A DNA stretch of 64,000 nucleotides from Phycisphaerae bacterium. Lineage in GTDB: Bacteria; Planctomycetota; Phycisphaerae; UBA1845. Where the stretch lies: assembly GCA_963666835.2 (NCBI GenBank), contig CAXXGO010000006.1:704001-768000 (forward strand). Direction: 5' to 3'. Positions within the stretch are counted from its first letter, which is position 1; each line of letters starts with the position of its first letter. This document shows positions 8,500-64,000 of this stretch, piece by piece. A model generated the notes under the pieces. It did not search any database and was not told the DNA's origin. It worked only from the letters and a program-made list of their open reading frames with translations. Both the position numbers and the translations under genes were made by a program.

Positions 8500-8641
8500 G
8501 GGTTGGAAGCCTGCGCTACGGGGGGCGTATTCCGTTACCGTGGAGCCGGCGTTTCCCAGGGGCAGGCTGGAAGCCTGCGTTACGGGAGCGTGTCTTGTTG
8601 CGGTTGCCCTGTGTTTGGGCAGGCTGGACGCCTGCGTTACG
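8500..8641 (-). repeat. Three tandem REP-like palindromes (family GTA[AG]CGCAGGC-N-GCCTGC)
   Basis: Copies at ~8500-8520, 8562-8584, 8619-8641; related copies at ~15047, 17078-17148, 22624, 30633, 32188, 33618, 54633, 63203. Confidence 0.8.
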
Positions 8642-9596: not shown

Positions 9597-9725
9597 GGCG
9601 AAGGGTGGGGAATCGATTGTGGAAGGCGGGTGTCCGTCGGATTATCGTCCGTCCCCCACCCATCCCGGCGGTGAGCTGACGCGGTTGTTCGAGGGCGGCG
9701 GGCGCCGGTATGGGGCACCCGCGCC
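9597..9725 (+). repeat. Dispersed ~130-bp hairpin repeat (family D), unoccupied group II intron target
   Basis: GGCGAAGGGTGGGGAATCGATTG...CGTCCGTCCCCCACCCAT..CCGGCG...GGGGCACCCGC; homologous to 15285-15368, 33340-33470, 48514-48591 (rc) and the split copy at 22680-22753/24681-24737 (rc). Confidence 0.8.
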
Positions 9726-15046: not shown

Positions 15047-15368
15047 GTAACGCAGGCTTTTAGCCTGCTAGAGCGTGGGTGCCCCGTCCTTCGCCCTGGG
15101 CGATATCGCAGTAGGCTGAGAGGTCTCGTGTATAGGCGTAGTTGCGGCATGCCGGGTGCCATGGTCCACGCTTGCGTGGCCATGAAGGTCGGCAGCCCCG
15201 TAGGGCACGGTCGAGGCACGAGACCTGCCGCAAAGGCGCGCGGCGCGCGAAAACTGATTGCGGAACAGGATCACCTCTCGGATCTTCATCCGTCCCCCCA
15301 CCCATTCCGGCGGGGAATCGGCGAGGCTGTTCCAGGTCGGCCCGCGCCGGAATGAAAGGGCACCCGCC
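15047..15368. repeat. Mosaic intergenic repeat cluster
   Basis: Family-2 REP at ~15047, GGGTGCCCCGTCCTTCGCCC unit at ~15077, GTAG-REP at 15200-15229, family D copy at ~15285-15368. Confidence 0.75.
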
Positions 15369-22618: not shown

Positions 22619-22753
22619 CTCGCGTAACGCAGGCTTGAAGCGGTTGCGGCAGGTCTCGTACCTCGACCTGCCCTATATCGCGGGTGCCCCATCCATTCCG
22701 GCATTTGCCAAGCTGGGACAGTAACGCCGGCTCCCCGCCGGAATGGGTGGGGG

Positions 22754-24680
22754 GAAAGCGCCGGTAAGCCGGTGAGGAGTAGTGGATGAGAGAGCCATAC
22801 GGTGAAGGAATAGCGAACCACACCGACCCCGAGTCATACTGTGGTGTCCGCAAGGGCATGGCGGGAGCGTTGACAGGGGCACGTGCGGGCCGGCCATTGA
22901 GCCGTGAAAGCCTTTTACTCCGGAGTGCCGACGCCGTCCCCCAAGGCGGAAGGCAACACCGGAGGGCGTCGTTAACGCGAGACGCCTTTCGGACTCCGCG
23001 CGGTCTTAGAACCCGAGCACGCACGGAAACTCCTCACGCGGAACCCGGGAGATCCCGCGTTCGGCCTCGAACATGGCATCGAGGTCCGCAGTGTGAATCC
23101 ATAGGAGCACGACACTGATGCACGGGCGCGGGAAGTCGGACAGGCCCATAGTACCGAAGAAGACTGCGAACAACGGTGATCCCCCGGCGGGGAGGTCGTC
23201 CGCGGAGCAGTTGGAGGAAAGGGGCCTGGCCAAGGGCAACTCGATTCGACACGACAGGCACCGTACGCAGAGCCGGGATCGTCTGCAAAGCGGGTTGGAT
23301 CGGGTACGACAGGCAGCGGTAAAGGATAAGGATTTACAGTTCACCACGCTTTGGCACCATGTCTATGATGTCGCTCGCCTCCGGGAGGCGTACTTGAGCC
23401 TCAAGCATGCTTCGGCACCGGGGATGGACGGCATGACATGGGAGGCGTACGGCAGGGACCTAGAAGAACACCTCTTGGATCTGTCGGCACGTCTACAGCG
23501 CGGAGCGTACCGAGCGAGGCCGGTCAAGCGGGTCTACATTCCGAAACCCGATGGACGGCAGAGACCAATAGGGATTCCCGTGTTGGAAGACAAGATCGTC
23601 CAACGGGCGATGACCGATGTGCTCTCGGCTGTCTACGAGGCAGACTTCCTCGGGTTCTCCTACGGATTTCGACCAGGACGGGACGCCCATCAGGCGTTAA
23701 GTGCCCTGACTGTCGGCATCGAGAGGAAGAAGGTGAATTGGGTGCTGGATGCAGACATTCGTGGATTCTTCGATGCCATAGACCACGATTGGCTGATCAA
23801 GTTCGTCGAGCACCGGATCGCAGACCAGCGTGTCGTGCGTCACGTGAAGAAGTGGCTGAACGCCGGCGTGCTGGAGGACGGGTGTCGAAGGGACACGGAG
23901 ACGGGGACGCCGCAGGGGGGCAGTATCAGCCCGCTATTGGCGAACATCTATCTCCATTACGCCTTCGACTTGTGGGCCCGCCAATGGCGACGGACGCAAG
24001 CTCACGGAGATGTGATTATCGTGAGATATGCGGACGACTTCGTGGTGGGATTTCAACAGCGAGAGGATGCCGAGCGGTTTCGGGATGAGCTGACGGATCG
24101 CCTCCGGAAGTTCAAGCTGGAGCTACATGCGGACAAGACTCGTCTGATTGAGTTCGGCCGTTTTGCGTCGACCAATCGCAAGCGAGAAGGCCGCGGCAAA
24201 CCGGCGACCTTCGAGTTTCTGGGTTTTCGCCACATCTGTGGCAAGACCCGGCGTGGGAGGTTCACGGTACTACGGCAGACTGTCGCGAAACGACGGCGTG
24301 CGAAGCTCAAAGCGATTAAGCAAGAGCTTCGGCGACGTATGCATGCCCCCGTCCGAGAGGTGGGCGCGTATTTGCGGGCGGTGGTTCGCGGGTACTATCA
24401 GTATTATGCGGTACCGCGGAACTACCCGGCCTTAACGGCATTTCGGGATGAGGTTGTCCGTCTTTGGCGCTGGACGCTCCGGCGTCGCAGCGAGAAGACT
24501 CGGATTACCTGGGCCCGCATGAACCGTTTGGCCAAGCAGTGGATACCTGCTCCCAAAATCCTACATCCTTACCCCGACCGACACCTGGCCGTTATGACCC
24601 AAGGCAGGAGCCCAGTGCGGTAGTCCCGCACGCTGGGATCTGTGGAGGGGGTCCCGGGTAACCGGGATTCCTACTCCGAC
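22754..24680 (+). mobile_element. Group II intron (bacterial; class E-like by inference)
   Basis: Domain V GAGCCCAGTGCGGTAGTCCCGCACGCTGGGATCTG (~24608-24642), domain VI hairpin ending CCTACTCCGAC (24680). Boundaries come from comparing the interrupted repeat with its empty copies. Confidence 0.9.
23118..24623 (+). CDS. ltrA: Group II intron reverse transcriptase/maturase (no En domain)
   Basis: APGMDG, IPKPDGRQRPIGIP, SYGFRPGR, GTPQGGSISPLLANIYL, RYADDF, FEFLGF; ends HPYP; overlaps domain V. Confidence 0.95.
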   Translation: MHGRGKSDRPIVPKKTANNGDPPAGRSSAEQLEERGLAKGNSIRHDRHRTQSRDRLQSGLDRVRQAAVKDKDLQFTTLWHHVYDVARLREAYLSLKHASAPGMDGMTWEAYGRDLEEHLLDLSARLQRGAYRARPVKRVYIPKPDGRQRPIGIPVLEDKIVQRAMTDVLSAVYEADFLGFSYGFRPGRDAHQALSALTVGIERKKVNWVLDADIRGFFDAIDHDWLIKFVEHRIADQRVVRHVKKWLNAGVLEDGCRRDTETGTPQGGSISPLLANIYLHYAFDLWARQWRRTQAHGDVIIVRYADDFVVGFQQREDAERFRDELTDRLRKFKLELHADKTRLIEFGRFASTNRKREGRGKPATFEFLGFRHICGKTRRGRFTVLRQTVAKRRRAKLKAIKQELRRRMHAPVREVGAYLRAVVRGYYQYYAVPRNYPALTAFRDEVVRLWRWTLRRRSEKTRITWARMNRLAKQWIPAPKILHPYPDRHLAVMTQGRSPVR

Positions 24681-25010
24681 ACGGACGAAAATCCGAAAAG
24701 CAACCACGCTAGGCAATCGATTCCCCACCCTTCGCCTGGTGCACGGCGCGCATCCGGCGATTGCGCCGGCATACGAGAGCTCTCGGCCTAATGCGAGACA
24801 ACCCAGGGCGAAGGACGGGGCACCCCGCTCGTACCTCGACCTGCCCTACAGCCTGCGATATGCCCCGGACCGAAGAACGCGGAACTCTCGCTTTCGAGAA
24901 CCCTGACCGAATCCCGCTGGGGCGGGCGGATGGCTACCGATTCACGGTATGGTAAACTGACGCTGCCGGGGTCAAGGTCGCCTCGGAGAGCGCTGAATCG
25001 AAGGGATATC

Positions 25011-30650: not shown

Positions 30651-32187
30651 CAATAATGTCCGGAACCCGTTGATTTCACGGCGGATCCGGGCTCGCTGGC
30701 GTGAGCCGCGAGCTGAGGCGGTGCGCGGGCGGCGCAGGCCCCGTGGAGCGACGGGCGCAAGCTGCCTTACTCGGCGCATACCGATAGCCGCGCTGGTCGG
30801 GCTGCGGACCGGCGCGGAACGCTACTTCCTGTTTTTTTCGCGTTGCCGTTCGGCGGCGCGGCGGCGTTCACGACGCCGTCGCTCAGCAATCTCGAACGAT
30901 CCTTGCCGCGGCATTAACCCGGAAACTACGGCTGAGACAATCACAAAGTCGTATTTCGATGGCCGCGAGCCAGTCTCGACCGCGATCAGCAGCAACGCCA
31001 CCATCATCACGTAGACCTGCACGGTCATCCCGGATTCGTCTTCCGAGAAGAAATGCTGGAAACTCGCAGAACTCTTCAGCCATCGGAAGAACAGCTCTAC
31101 TTGCCACCGGTGCTGGTAGATCAGCGCGATCATCCAGGCCGGGATGTCCAACAAGTCCGTAAGCAAACGCATCCGCTTCTGTTTACCTTCGCGGTCGGTG
31201 AACTCGACCACTACCTCACGTAAACGCGGTAAGTCGTGCGCCTCGGGATCAACGCCCAAGGTAACCTCGGTGTCGATCGCAACACCTGCGGCCACATCCT
31301 CATCGCTGAGCGGTTTGACCCTTACGGAATTGGTATGCACGTTCTTACGCAAACGCACGACGAAGGAACTCTTGACCTTAATGATTTCCTCGAGGAGGCC
31401 ATACGATTGAAAACCGCGGTCCATGACGTACAGGCAATCGGGCTCAAGATGCGTTCCGAGCACCTTGGCTTCACGCATCTGTCCATCCGTGACCGTGCAA
31501 CATTCGGGAACGCCCTTGAGGACATCGAAATCGACGTGCACGCGGATCTGGCCCTTACGGACCCCCTTCTTCTCGGATTGGTTGTACAACGCCCAGGCGA
31601 TTCGCGGAGCCACCGCGAAGAAGGTGCCGTCGACGGCCAGGAGCTTCTGTGTCAGGCTATCCAGGCGGTTGTCATGCGGTTGGATGTCGGCACGCTCCAC
31701 AAGCGAGTCGATCAACGGCAGCAGTAGGGCCGGGTCGAAGACCTTCTGGGCGTCGGAGACTGTGCTCTTGGGCATCCGAGGGATTCCATACCGCTTTCGA
31801 ATCCGAGGATGTTCGAAGAGATCCTCGATGCTGCGCAGGCCTGTAACCGACGGGTTGAAGAAGGCCAACAGGTGAGCCACCACCAGTTGATCGTAGAACA
31901 CGTCCCGGTTGGCGTGGGCCGGCTGGTCATGGAGGTGTTCGAGGTAGTCTTCGATCAGTCGTGTGTAGCGGATTCCGATCAAATCGGGCGGCAACTTGGC
32001 CCGGCGCGCACGCCTTTTGCGCTTCTCCTCTGCTTTCTGGGCTTTCTTTCGCCTGCGCGTCATCGTGCCCAGAGTAGAGCACAAAGTGAGGCTGGGCGCA
32101 AGTTTGGTTTATGTTAGGTTGGCTGCACGCCTTCTGAGGGCCCGCGCCCACCGCCCCGAACTCCCCCGAGAATCCCGGACACTATTG
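30651..32187 (-). mobile_element. IS4-family insertion sequence, copy 1 (1537 bp)
   Basis: Terminal inverted repeats CAATAATGTCCGG / CAATAGTGTCCGG (12 of 13 match) enclosing a DDE transposase; near-identical copy starts at 63223. Confidence 0.92.
30822..32063 (-). CDS. IS4 family transposase
   Basis: AVDGT, MDRGF, Y..RWQVELFFRWLK (YREK motif). Confidence 0.93.
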   Translation of the reverse strand: MTRRRKKAQKAEEKRKRRARRAKLPPDLIGIRYTRLIEDYLEHLHDQPAHANRDVFYDQLVVAHLLAFFNPSVTGLRSIEDLFEHPRIRKRYGIPRMPKSTVSDAQKVFDPALLLPLIDSLVERADIQPHDNRLDSLTQKLLAVDGTFFAVAPRIAWALYNQSEKKGVRKGQIRVHVDFDVLKGVPECCTVTDGQMREAKVLGTHLEPDCLYVMDRGFQSYGLLEEIIKVKSSFVVRLRKNVHTNSVRVKPLSDEDVAAGVAIDTEVTLGVDPEAHDLPRLREVVVEFTDREGKQKRMRLLTDLLDIPAWMIALIYQHRWQVELFFRWLKSSASFQHFFSEDESGMTVQVYVMMVALLLIAVETGSRPSKYDFVIVSAVVSGLMPRQGSFEIAERRRRERRRAAERQREKNRK

Positions 32188-32385
32188 GCAAGATGCCTGC
32201 GTTACGGGTGCGCGTCCCCCACGGCTAAAGCCATGGGCCACCCGTTCTACACAATCAGTACGGCAAGCGTGAGCGACCCGCCCTATGCCATCGGCGTGGC
32301 GTGACCCACGGGTCAACAAGTTGGCCCATGCCACCCACGCGGCACCAATGTAGGGCAGGTCGAGGAACGAGACCTGCCGCAACGG
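32188..32385. repeat. Mosaic repeat cluster adjacent to the IS
   Basis: Half REP (32188-32206), GGCTAAAGCCATGGGCCACCCG unit, and a ~130-bp module CAATCAGTACGGC...GTAGGGCAGGTCGAGG also at 35360 and 35825. Confidence 0.75.
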
Positions 32386-33251: not shown

Positions 33252-33782
33252 CGGGTGCCCCGTCCTTCGCCGTGGGGCTCATCGCGGTAGGCAGAGAGCC
33301 TCGTATTCAGACGCGGTTACGGTATGCGCGCCACGTTTCAGGCGAAGGGTGGGGAATCGATTGCGGAGGGGGAGTGTTTTTCGGGTTTTCGTCCGTCCCC
33401 CACCCATTCCGGCGGGGAGGCGGCGTGGCTACTGCAGATCGACAGACGCCGGAATGGATGGGGCACCCGCGCAGATGGCGGATAGCGTTGTCGGAATGGA
33501 TCGAGCAGCGCCGGCGGGTGAAGGGCACGGTCGAGGTACGAGACCTGCCACAACGGCGCGCATTGTCCCAAGCCATGTCCGGGGAACAGCGTTGTTCGGT
33601 GCATTGCGCGAGGTGCTGCAGGCAGGATGCCTGCGCTACGTGATGGTGTCCCCCACGACTAAAGCCATGAGCCACCCGCGTGGGTGCGATCTCGGATGTG
33701 TTCCCGTCCCGGCGGGCCGGCGGACGCTTGCGGGGATCGCGCGAATACCAACGGCAGGTCTCGTACCTCGACCATGCCCTAC
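33252..33782. repeat. Mosaic intergenic repeat cluster
   Basis: Family D copy 33340-33470, inverted GTAG-REP pair 33520-33549/33753-33782, family-2 REP ~33618-33640, CTAAAGCCATGAGCCACCCG unit. Confidence 0.8.
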
Positions 33783-45896: not shown

Positions 45897-45981
45897 CGGT
45901 GCCGCATTCCTTCGCCCCCCGCCGGGCACATCACCCTATCCCGGATCATTCATCCAAGCGAAGTATGCGTCGTGAACCAAT

Positions 45982-46006
45982 GTAGCGCCAGGGCTTGTCC
46001 CTGGCG
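45982..46006 (+). repeat. GTAG-type REP, family 3
   Basis: GTAGCGCCAGGG-CTTGT-CCCTGGCG; identical at 57259-57283, degenerate at ~62722-62746. Confidence 0.75.
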
Positions 46007-46106
46007 TCGAAGCTTCGGCGATAGTCCACCCTATTACGCAAGCCGCCTCCGGTACTCACGTAACCGGAGGCGGCTGAATGTCAAACCCAATGGTAATCCG
46101 ATGAGC

Positions 46107-48513: not shown

Positions 48514-48639
48514 GCGGGTGCCCCGTCCATGCCGGCGTTTGCCACGCCGGAACGTTGCATCGCGCCGCCGCCAGCATGGGTGGGGGACGGATTGCGGTCC
48601 TGAAGTTACGTAGGGCACGGTCGAGACACGAGACCTGCC
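48514..48639. repeat. Family D repeat (rc) followed by a GTAG-REP
   Basis: GCGGGTGCCCCGTCCATGCCGGC...GCATGGGTGGGGGACGG; GTAGGGCACGGTCGAGACACGAGACCTGCC at 48610-48639. Confidence 0.75.
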
Positions 48640-61933: not shown

Positions 61934-63222
61934 TCTCGGTGCGGGTGCCAGCGGCACCCTTTGATATTGTCGCCCCCTCCATCGAGCTTACGCCGTCGCC
62001 CGGCGAACCGCCCGGAATGCCAGGGGCTTGTCAGCCTAAGTCGGCGGGTTGGAGTCCGGTCCGTTCTTGCGATTATCGGGGCGGTGTGTCTGGCCGGGCC
62101 CCACCCGCCATTACAGTATAGGACACGCCGGCGGGCGGTTTCCACTTCCCGGCGGTATCGGTGGAAAAATCGCGGCACGCCGGGTCCGGGTTCAATTCAC
62201 ACTGTGTCCAGCCCCTACCCTGCTCAGAACCAGTGGCACACCCGAGAAACAGGTGTAACGCAGCGCTAGCAAGATTCCCGGGAAAGCGATACGTCCGAGA
62301 TTGTGCCGGGATTCGACACTGCCAACAAGATGGGAAAGACAGATAAGTATACGGGCGGGAGACCGGGTCGGTAGTCTTTAACAAGTTCGTGACGCTGCAG
62401 ACTTCCTTGCCAGCGAGTCCCGCCCGCTAATATTACCATAGGATCCTCCCGCATAGATGTCCACTCAGTGACACTCGTTCTTTGATCCAGGGCGTCCGTT
62501 TTGCAGCTCTATACTAAAGGAAAACGCCCATTCCCTCTCACCGACCAAAACGAAGAAGTAGGTTCTCGATACGGTCTCCGCGGAAGGAACAAGTGCCACG
62601 GTGGTTTTCCAGCCCATGCGCAGAATCGTCCCTTCCACCCTTCCGTGTAATGCCACCCGCGCGGCAGTTGCGACGCTATCCCGGATCATTCATTCAAGCG
62701 AAGCATAGCCCGTAGATTCATATAGCGCGAGGGTTGCCCCCGGCGCGGGACCGTGTTGTGTCATTACACCGGCACCTACAAGGGGGATGGCGTTACAGTA
62801 AGTTACGCACATTCACGCGAACGTCATGAATGACTCGGGCGATGATGTCGCCCGTCAATTGCCGCGTCGACACCCGACGCCGTCCATGGACTCGAACCAA
62901 TAAAACGCTCGCCGGAGAAGGACTACCACCGCCGGAGAATGGTGGGTTCGCAGAACGGCAGGCGGAAAGTACCTTCCACGATGGCGGGAAGGATCGCCGT
63001 TGTGGAGCCATCGCGTCTGTTGACCTTCCGCCCGCCAGTCAACTATAGGCATGCCTGCGGGTCGCGATCCACAGTTCTGACCTCTGATGGGGTCTTCTCC
63101 CCATCGCTATGCGTGCGAGGTAAAACGATGTTCCGAGATCGCCCAGTTTCGTTTCTCAGAAGATCATCAAAGGTCCTCCCCGCTCTTGCCAGGTGGGTTC
63201 ACGCAGCAGGCAGGCATCCTGC

Positions 63223-64000
63223 CAATAGTGTCCGGGATTCTCGGGGGAGTTCGGGGCGGTGGGCGCGGGCCCTCAGAAGGCGTGCAGCCAACCTAACATA
63301 AACCAAACTTGCGCCCAGCCTCACTTTGTGCTCTACTCTGGGCACGATGACGCGCAGGCGAAAGAAAGCCCAGAAAGCAGAGGAGAAGCGCAAAAGGCGT
63401 GCGCGCCGGGCCAAGTTGCCGCCCGATTTGATCGGAATCCGCTACACACGACTGATCGAAGACTACCTCGAACACCTCCATGACCAGCCGGCCCACGCCA
63501 ACCGGGACGTGTTCTACGATCAACTGGTGGTGGCTCACCTGTTGGCCTTCTTCAACCCGTCGGTTACAGGCCTGCGCAGCATCGAGGATCTCTTCGAACA
63601 TCCTCGGATTCGAAAGCGGTATGGAATCCCTCGGATGCCCAAGAGCACAGTCTCCGACGCCCAGAAGATCTTCGACCCGGCCCTACTGCTGCCGTTGATC
63701 GACTCGCTTGTGGAGCGTGCCGACATCCAACCGCATGACAACCGCCTGGATAGCCTGACACAGAAGCTCCTGGCCGTCGACGGCACCTTCTTCGCGGTGG
63801 CTCCGCGAATCGCCTGGGCGTTGTACAACCAATCCGAGAAGAAGGGGGTCCGTAAGGGCCAGATCCGCGTGCACGTCGATTTCGATGTCCTCAAGGGCGT
63901 TCCCGAATGTTGCACGGTCACGGATGGACAGATGCGTGAAGCCAAGGTGCTCGGAACGCATCTTGAGCCCGATTGCCTGTACGTCATGGACCGCGGTTTT
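63223..64000 (+). mobile_element. IS4-family insertion sequence, copy 2 (truncated by the window edge)
   Basis: Starts CAATAGTGTCCGG; reverse complement of copy 1 with one noticed substitution (QKVF vs QKIF). Confidence 0.92.
63347..64000 (+). CDS. IS4 family transposase (partial)
   Basis: MTRRRKKAQKAEEK... matches copy 1 N-terminus. Confidence 0.9.
   Translation, partial: MTRRRKKAQKAEEKRKRRARRAKLPPDLIGIRYTRLIEDYLEHLHDQPAHANRDVFYDQLVVAHLLAFFNPSVTGLRSIEDLFEHPRIRKRYGIPRMPKSTVSDAQKIFDPALLLPLIDSLVERADIQPHDNRLDSLTQKLLAVDGTFFAVAPRIAWALYNQSEKKGVRKGQIRVHVDFDVLKGVPECCTVTDGQMREAKVLGTHLEPDCLYVMDRGF

Follow-up and report, generated by a model that had tools for sequence, protein, structure and literature searches.

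Structure and class of the intron

The window, the stretch of 64,000 nucleotides that was analysed, carries on its plus strand a group II intron of 1927 nt (22754-24680), which begins with GAAAGCG, ends with AC and is inserted in a dispersed repeat. Its 5' exon (22680..22753, plus strand) is the first half of that repeat and comprises a left arm (22682-22702), a spacer of approximately 32 nt and a right arm (22737-22753). The 3' exon (24681..24825, plus strand) starts with the IBS3 base A24681 and constitutes the remainder of a composite repeat containing a second, inverted unit of the same family. The boundaries proposed in the original prediction were right: all 12 full copies of the intron in the genome are preceded by GGGTGGGGG and followed by A(C/T), and the rejoined flanks match window positions 33339-33470 on the minus strand (85% identity over 135 nt, E value 2e-37).

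Part of domain I (22789..23013, plus strand) matched the Rfam model RF02005 (group-II-D1D4-6) with 169.4 bits, compared to a gathering score of 49. The hairpin CGCC-GTCCCCCAA-GGCG (22932..22948, plus strand), which had been predicted to display the exon-binding loop, is the terminal hairpin of domain Id3 in the RF02005 alignment and is present in the MFE fold; it contains the delta position (U22937) and EBS1 (CCCCCA, 22938-22943). Domain V (24608..24640, plus strand), with an AGC triad and a five-base loop, was identified from sequence and fold, and domain VI (24644..24677, plus strand) from its fold, in which the unpaired A24673 is the putative branch point. The ribozyme structure formed by domains I, V, and VI surrounds an ORF (23118..24623, plus strand) for a reverse transcriptase/maturase of 501 amino acids with an intact YADD motif, the organization of a group II intron retroelement. 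The protein exceeded the cut-off of TIGR04416 (370.6 vs. 300 bits), and a Pfam search gave RVT_1 only and thus no endonuclease domain.

The 5' end GAAAGCG was found in all 12 copies and is two bases longer than GUGYG. This start is fixed by the comparison of 12 filled with many empty sites and by an ORF-less relative that has the same start in another repeat. In a set of 28 intron 5' ends (described below), 11 were of canonical length, 10 had one or two extra bases, five began with GAGCG, and two were unclear. The GAAAGCG start occurred in six of the 28 introns, which lie in separate parts of the tree; a single clade of such introns was not seen, as five of these rows fell into three separate groups of a quick, unfinished tree. 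Judged by its sequence, the intron combines a lengthened 5' end with retention of EBS2 and a predicted branch adenosine. No paper describing a 5' end of the GAAAGCG type was found in the literature searched, outside which most subscription papers fell. One RNA run, with a 244-nt contig within domain I, contained no spliced joint.

The intron-encoded protein shares 58% identity with its counterpart in the pBCJ2315 intron (Burkholderia cenocepacia J2315), which the PMC8919778 supplement assigns to class E. Both proteins fell into one clade of 50 rows with a support of 100 in a quick tree of 65 proteins, calculated without bootstrap, from which matches of fewer than 230 residues were left out and which contained pBCJ2315 as its one labelled reference and none from other classes. 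The absence of an endonuclease domain and the five-base domain V loop are listed as class E features in excerpts of PMC3753933 and PMC3552965, and the window intron has both of them together with EBS1, EBS2, and EBS3. By these features it is a class E (IIB-type, endonuclease-less) group II intron. The short IBS1 (3–4 bp) and missing EBS2 of IIC introns contrast with an EBS1 of 6 bp and a covarying EBS2, and in place of a stem-loop upstream of an unpaired IBS1, five of six IBS1 bases and six of six IBS2 bases are paired within a stem. Pairing of delta with the first 3' exon base, as in IIA introns, is possible in only four of 20 introns, the window intron among them, whereas EBS3 pairs with this base in 18 of 20, so that recognition is of the IIB type. 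For class E introns in vitro, splicing by hydrolysis only, with EBS2 dispensable, is described in extracts of PMC3753933.

Intron copies and target repeat

The genome assembly (G000; 6.0 Mb, 7 contigs, 92% complete) contains 12 full copies of the intron, ten on contig C6 and one each on C1 and C7, which are 99.9–100% identical and each have a different flank. Eleven copies have 0–2 substitutions relative to the window copy, the C1 copy is frameshifted by a single inserted base, and three substitution patterns distinguish the copies. All 12 are inserted at the same base of the repeat, none being located in unrelated flanks, and 63 of the 75 such sites are empty. Ten copies are hosted by the long-spacer variant of the repeat and two by a variant with a different upstream core, the G-rich core being common to both. 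All insertions lie between crude ORFs at a distance of at least 99 bases; the ORF flag applied in this comparison was confounded by reading frames within the intron itself. The repeat copies are 72–86% identical to each other and the intron copies 99.9–100%, which indicates that the repeat is older than the intron burst. The 75 bases upstream of the C7 copy (G000:C7:44585-46511) are those of the window copy and its 3' flank is another one, a pattern attributable to recombination or conversion between copies, or to a mis-join. For two of the insertions, an empty near-twin of the repeat is located within 3 kb. The genome also contains a third, more distant group II intron (G000:C6:1065000-1067034; protein 44% identical) and two 3' fragments related to the window intron (C7:69129-69536 and C7:94469-94516), one of which is 95% identical with another 3' flank.

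Repeat arms were collected by a sequence definition, which replaced a first hairpin score that misclassified short-loop copies; this definition, which misses at least three variants, yielded 75 filled and empty arms on both strands. An 11-mer core of the repeat occurs 59 times, compared to two occurrences of the reversed control. Crude ORFs of at least 200 amino acids overlap 15 of the 75 arms, vs. a coverage of 78% of the genome by such ORFs. The repeat is thus a short, multicopy, extragenic palindrome, found also as inverted doublets and in clusters, in the manner of REP/REPIN sequences. On the reverse strand the right arms mostly start with CGTC, and the intron cut lies within this CGTC; the repeat was not matched to a family in the consulted part of PMC3733652. 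The arm motif was present in three of 151 genomes of the order and the left-arm motif in one of 301 genomes of a phylum sample, each including the host genome itself, which shows the repeat to be lineage-restricted. A transposase parent of the repeat adjoins it in neither G000 nor genome G170 (92 and 94% complete, respectively): none of the nine and three PF01797 matches, respectively, that could represent a REP-associated tyrosine transposase lies within 1.5 kb of a repeat. A metagenome scan with the 16-base arm motif returned mostly chance matches, with about one repeat-like locus among the 80 of 119 loci examined, and a home-made profile detected no Y1 gene at these 80 loci.

Besides the filled copy, four empty ones in the window were compared. 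The copy at 33340..33470 (minus strand) is intact, with its site between 33397 and 33396, and that at 9597..9725 (minus strand; site between 9653 and 9652) has full IBS1 and IBS3, as has the copy at 48514..48591 (plus strand), whose IBS2 is weaker. The copy at 15285..15368 (minus strand) is a six-G variant with one IBS1 mismatch. The original prediction had listed all four as reverse-complement copies, which holds for 33340-33470, 9597-9725, and 15285-15368 but not for the plus-strand copy at 48514-48591; and 15285-15368, while indeed an empty repeat, lacks the 10-mer treated below because of its six G and allows EBS1 pairing at five of six bases. The window has at least four more families of palindromic repeats between genes, which often cluster with the target repeat (e.g., 15200-15251, 8560-8601, 32187-32244, and 45941-46011). 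A perfect inverted pair of 791 nt (31410-32200 and 63210-64000, cut by the window end) probably represents two copies of a recent mobile element.

Exon-binding sites

Intron 5' ends were gathered from 54 genome loci, relatives of the host, and the plasmid reference; 34 had enough flank and were aligned, and removal of six near-duplicates left 28. Positions 7–12 of the Id3 hairpin, compared with the exon end, pair at five or more of six bases in 25 of the 28 introns, vs. a shuffled mean of 2.3 and a maximum of 9 in 5000 shuffles with the same offset freedom. This bears out the predicted assignment of EBS1 to 22938-22943 in domain Id3; its partner IBS1 (TGGGGG, 22748..22753, plus strand) is identical in all 12 insertions. 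For the EBS3 base (U23006, plus strand), Watson-Crick pairing of its column with the first base of the 3' exon holds in 18 of 20 introns, the exceptions being L003 and L010 (shuffled mean 7.2, maximum 15). EBS2 (CCUUUU, 22911..22916, plus strand) directly follows the GAAAG motif and pairs with IBS2 (22741..22746, plus strand; positions -13 to -8), the register being derived from covariation; the occupancy of sites in the genome, treated below, is further evidence for this pairing. Across the alignment this pairing has a mean of 3.22, compared to 2.03 for shuffled data and reached by none of 2000 shuffles, and since the register was picked from nine, a best-of-nine test was applied (4.0 vs. 3.39, 0 of 5000 shuffles); all these covariation figures are overstated because the introns compared are kin. 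EBS2 fits both repeat variants about equally.

The complement of 22934-22943 occurs at 9649, 33393, and 48581 and within the intron itself, that is, four times at an expectation of 0.22, a count reached in none of 100 shuffles. The claim built on this 10-mer, a pairing of ten out of ten bases with the rejoined junction, is sound for its EBS1 part; the other four pairs, however, use intron stem bases and delta and show no covariation with the 3' exon (4 of 20), so that the match is largely incidental. A IIA-type delta pairing as the meaning of this match is thereby ruled out for the class, and delta may provide a bonus pairing in the window intron alone.

The site had also been described as lying just 3' of a 10-bp stem. 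In the DNA fold of the 5' exon (z -2.0) the stem is instead 16 bp long, extends to position -2 and includes IBS2 and five of the six IBS1 bases. Folding z-scores of -2 or below were obtained for two of the 28 5' exons. In IIC introns a stem-loop 3–11 nt upstream replaces IBS2, and IBS1 has 3–4 bp (PMC1702495, in the part consulted). The suggestion of an IIC-like combination of pairing and hairpin recognition is not supported: the protein groups with the class E reference, EBS1 has 6 nt, EBS2 and EBS3 covary, and IBS1 and IBS2 are located in the 3' arm of the hairpin. Hairpin-adjacent insertion as the main mechanism was likewise rejected on the basis of the EBS2 covariation, the position of both sites in the stem, and the relatives, most of which have no upstream hairpin; the hairpin may still have a helper role.

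Occupancy of target sites

Perfect IBS1 and IBS3 sequences occur at 888 sites in the genome, among which are the 75 repeat arms, and all 12 insertions are in those 75. On contigs C6 and C1, plus-strand arms with a good EBS2 fit (score of at least 4) were filled in 11 of 26 cases and those with a poorer fit in 0 of 12 (P 0.008). The minus strand of these contigs has 24 arms of good EBS2 fit, none of which was filled, compared to the 11 of 26 on the plus strand (P 0.0003); both P values are overstated, as neither the copies nor the relatives are independent of each other. In both contigs it is the plus strand that is rich in G. The cumulative skew of C6 has its minimum at about 315 kb, and all ten C6 copies are located beyond this cut, which was chosen post hoc; the local GC skew is near zero over 300–800 kb of C6, the region of eight copies. 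Two dnaA genes exceeded the family cut-off (G000:C6:228575-229801 and C3:137958-139253), and with one dnaA at 228 kb of C6 and the other on C3 the origin is not fixed. The strand bias is what would be expected for insertion into the lagging-strand template, since an intron in leading-strand sense is one that entered that template; this preference is known for RmInt1 (excerpts of PMC8632793). Plus-strand sites with an equal fit to EBS1–3 outside the repeat pattern were filled in 0 of 15 cases (P 0.003); ten of these sites lie in long ORFs and three are variants of the repeat. Pairing with the EBSs alone is therefore an insufficient explanation, and selection, protein contacts, or the hairpin would contribute beyond it.

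Contigs of four public runs were aligned to the region, runs with small shares (X8–X22) being left out except X10, which yielded no spliced joint. In run X7, one contig spans 22679-23188 and leads from the 5' flank of site 33396 directly into 435 nt of intron; it shows 12 differences, of which the nine listed individually are confined to the exon. A contig of run X5 covers 24667-24738 with eight differences and joins the last 14 intron nucleotides to the 3' flank. Among 57 repeat copies compared, only that at 33396 fits the letters and the difference counts (12 and 8). According to these junctions, which are from short-read contigs with 14 intron bases at the X5 junction and with the gene flanks of the window uncovered, site 33396, empty in the assembly, is occupied by the intron in two further samples, both from one study. 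This site is on the minus strand, which is never used in the present assembly; the strand rule is therefore not absolute, or the strain in X5 and X7 is rearranged. In run X6, a contig crosses the 3' junction of the copy at C6:319967 into its flank.

Related introns and their targets

An ORF-less class E intron family is represented in G000 by a full copy of 670 nt (C6:259364-260033), a 140-nt remnant with both ends (C6:234347-234486), and a 5' fragment (C1:352764-352856). All three are inserted at the same base of a GTAG-tagged repeat that is present in about 800 copies. EBS1 of this family pairs with the target at six of six bases, and the family is a candidate for mobilisation in trans.

Six of nine relatives tested have multicopy target motifs, although five of these six were picked for their repeat-like look. 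The counts of motif and control copies were 19 and 1 for L001, 22 and 2 for L070, 18 and 2 for L020, 8 and 3 for L029, 4 and 0 for L027, and 8 and 2 for L069, respectively. For the remaining three relatives (L072, L068, and L079) no multicopy motif was found and the introns are in single-copy sites. EBS1 and target both differ in L001, the intron that the tree places closest. Inverted copies of the L029 target motif bracket a Y1 transposase (PF01797) gene (L118:359-1138). In Acidimicrobiaceae genomes, the class E introns L004 and L007 occur nested with further group II introns. The pBCJ2315 reference intron (L066:810-835) is inserted where a palindrome resembling a LexA box ends, upstream of imuA.

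Origin of the intron distribution

Taken together, these data make it very probable that this class E intron has moved recently, and probably still moves, and that its three EBSs fit one arm of a palindromic, REP-like repeat in the host. Observed are the boundaries, the copy number, the common site, the covariation of EBS1–3, the dependence of occupancy on EBS2 and strand, and one site that is both filled and empty; from these we infer splicing, RNP formation, priming at the fork, and a low cost to the host. The spliced RNA with bound reverse transcriptase would recognize 13 bases of the repeat arm by pairing of EBS2, EBS1, and EBS3 and would reverse-splice into the arm. Insertion would mostly take place into the single-stranded lagging-strand template at the replication fork, which would be used because an endonuclease is lacking, and the nascent strand would prime cDNA synthesis. 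As the repeat is intergenic and has dozens of copies, insertions would be tolerated and the intron could accumulate. The core of the original prediction, homing into a multicopy intergenic repeat by means of EBS1 with empty targets left, agrees with the location of all 12 copies in the repeat and with the filling of one empty site elsewhere. Its further proposal that the intron has adapted to the repeat as a safe harbour goes beyond the observed use of the repeat site, since a chance fit followed by the survival of harmless insertions would look identical.

Exactly this reading, to which we give slightly less than an even chance, requires no special adaptation: the EBSs of an arriving or mutated intron happened to fit an abundant and harmless repeat, and it is introns of this kind alone that persist and spread. 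It differs from homing by an adapted intron in history, not in chemistry. The different EBS1 and target of L001, the three relatives in single-copy sites, the nesting of L004 and L007 inside other introns, and the homing waves known to follow an EBS change in T. elongatus (extracts of PMC2882425) are in its favor, whereas it is less readily reconciled with two lineages in G000 that fit different repeat families with six of six EBS1 bases each, an EBS2 that fits both repeat variants about equally, and the multicopy motifs of six of the nine relatives. A broader generalization is that some class E lineages have specialised on REP-like palindromes of their hosts, which would be a fourth kind of target besides gene homing sites, terminators, and attC sites. 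Such lineages would adjust EBS1–3 with each change of repeat family, recognize the repeat in single-stranded or folded form at the fork, and accept a longer 5' end with branching and precise homing preserved. This generalization is tentative and on balance rather doubtful.

That the RNP depends on the hairpin or distal sequence of the repeat in addition to EBS pairing, comparable to the stem-loop requirement of class C introns, appears unlikely. A left arm that could fold is present upstream in all 12 targets, a single-stranded fork template would allow hairpins, the sites of the ORF-less relative and L070 are also near the base of a palindrome's 3' arm, and none of the 15 equally complementary sites outside the repeat is used. 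Ten of those 15, however, are in long ORFs, where selection would purge insertions, and with IBS1 and IBS2 inside the stem, folding would compete with pairing, unlike the IIC arrangement with a stem-loop in place of IBS2 described above. Moreover, the arm spacing among the targets varies from a few bases to about 60, and stable 5' exon folds are confined to the two introns mentioned. Passive spread by duplication or recombination of intron-bearing repeats, or an assembly error, is highly improbable. It could account for the shared upstream flank of the C7 copy and for the near-twin empty repeats, but is largely refuted by the remaining flanks, which differ from the first spacer base; it also conflicts with the three substitution patterns separating the copies and with the C6:319967 junction in X6, and would not predict a strand bias.

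Homing thus makes a palindromic repeat of the host a renewable intergenic target for an intron, as it is for some insertion sequences, and because the target is such a repeat, a site-specific intron can reach a dozen copies with genes left unbroken. The genome amounts to a natural experiment with 75 graded targets on both strands, in which occupancy tracks EBS2 fit and strand, and the proposal for class E that EBS2 is idle in splicing and needed for homing (in the excerpted text of PMC3753933) becomes directly testable. The near-identical intron copies in repeats may also seed rearrangements.

Comparison with known systems

The class E introns Cl.be.I2 (PMC3753933) and pBCJ2315 (PMC8919778) share with the window intron, in the portions of these sources consulted, the lack of an endonuclease, the five-base domain V loop, and the IIB-type EBS1–3. 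The window intron differs from them in its dispersed palindromic target, its 12 copies, and the start GAAAGCG instead of GUGYG, and its occupancy provides genomic evidence for a role of EBS2 in homing, which the excerpts of PMC3753933 only proposed. RmInt1 of Sinorhizobium meliloti (class D, target ISRm2011-2) likewise has no endonuclease, uses a multicopy non-essential target, and prefers the lagging-strand template, the other strand being used later (PMC8632793, excerpts), but it belongs to another class and targets the transposase gene of an insertion sequence instead of a 20-base arm of a non-coding palindrome. Class C introns, which insert after terminators and into attC, are also intergenic at inverted repeats, lack an endonuclease and show a strand bias; with an IBS1 of 3–4 bp, no EBS2, and an upstream stem-loop (consulted part of PMC1702495) they are unlike the window intron, which has an IBS1 of 6 bp, an EBS2, and both sites in the stem. 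Fungal rRNA IIB1 introns and C.te.I1 of Clostridium tetani resemble it in that their splice site, too, lies further upstream of the GUGYG motif than usual. These known 5'-extended introns, however, have lost EBS2 and the branch site according to excerpts of PMC4424553, whereas the window intron keeps both, has moved 12 times, and has precise ends; by its sequence it would be a mobile intron with a lengthened 5' end and a retained branch adenosine.

REP-targeting insertion sequences (ISPpu9, ISPpu10, ISPa11, and IS1397; PMC1525189, in part) occupy a fixed position in a multicopy extragenic palindrome as well, but are DNA transposons, while the window element is a retroelement guided by its own RNA. 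A table in the same source places two of nine group II introns of P. putida at REPs, with no further comment in the sections consulted. The target specificities of bacterial group II introns given in the excerpts of a 2015 review (PMC4424553) are homing sites, terminators, and attC sites, and no paper on REP-like repeats as homing sites of group II introns was found in the searched literature, beyond which most subscription papers lay. The case is real and well supported; its chemistry is that of ordinary homing, and its interest lies in the class of target and in the test of EBS2 fit and strand that the genome itself provides.
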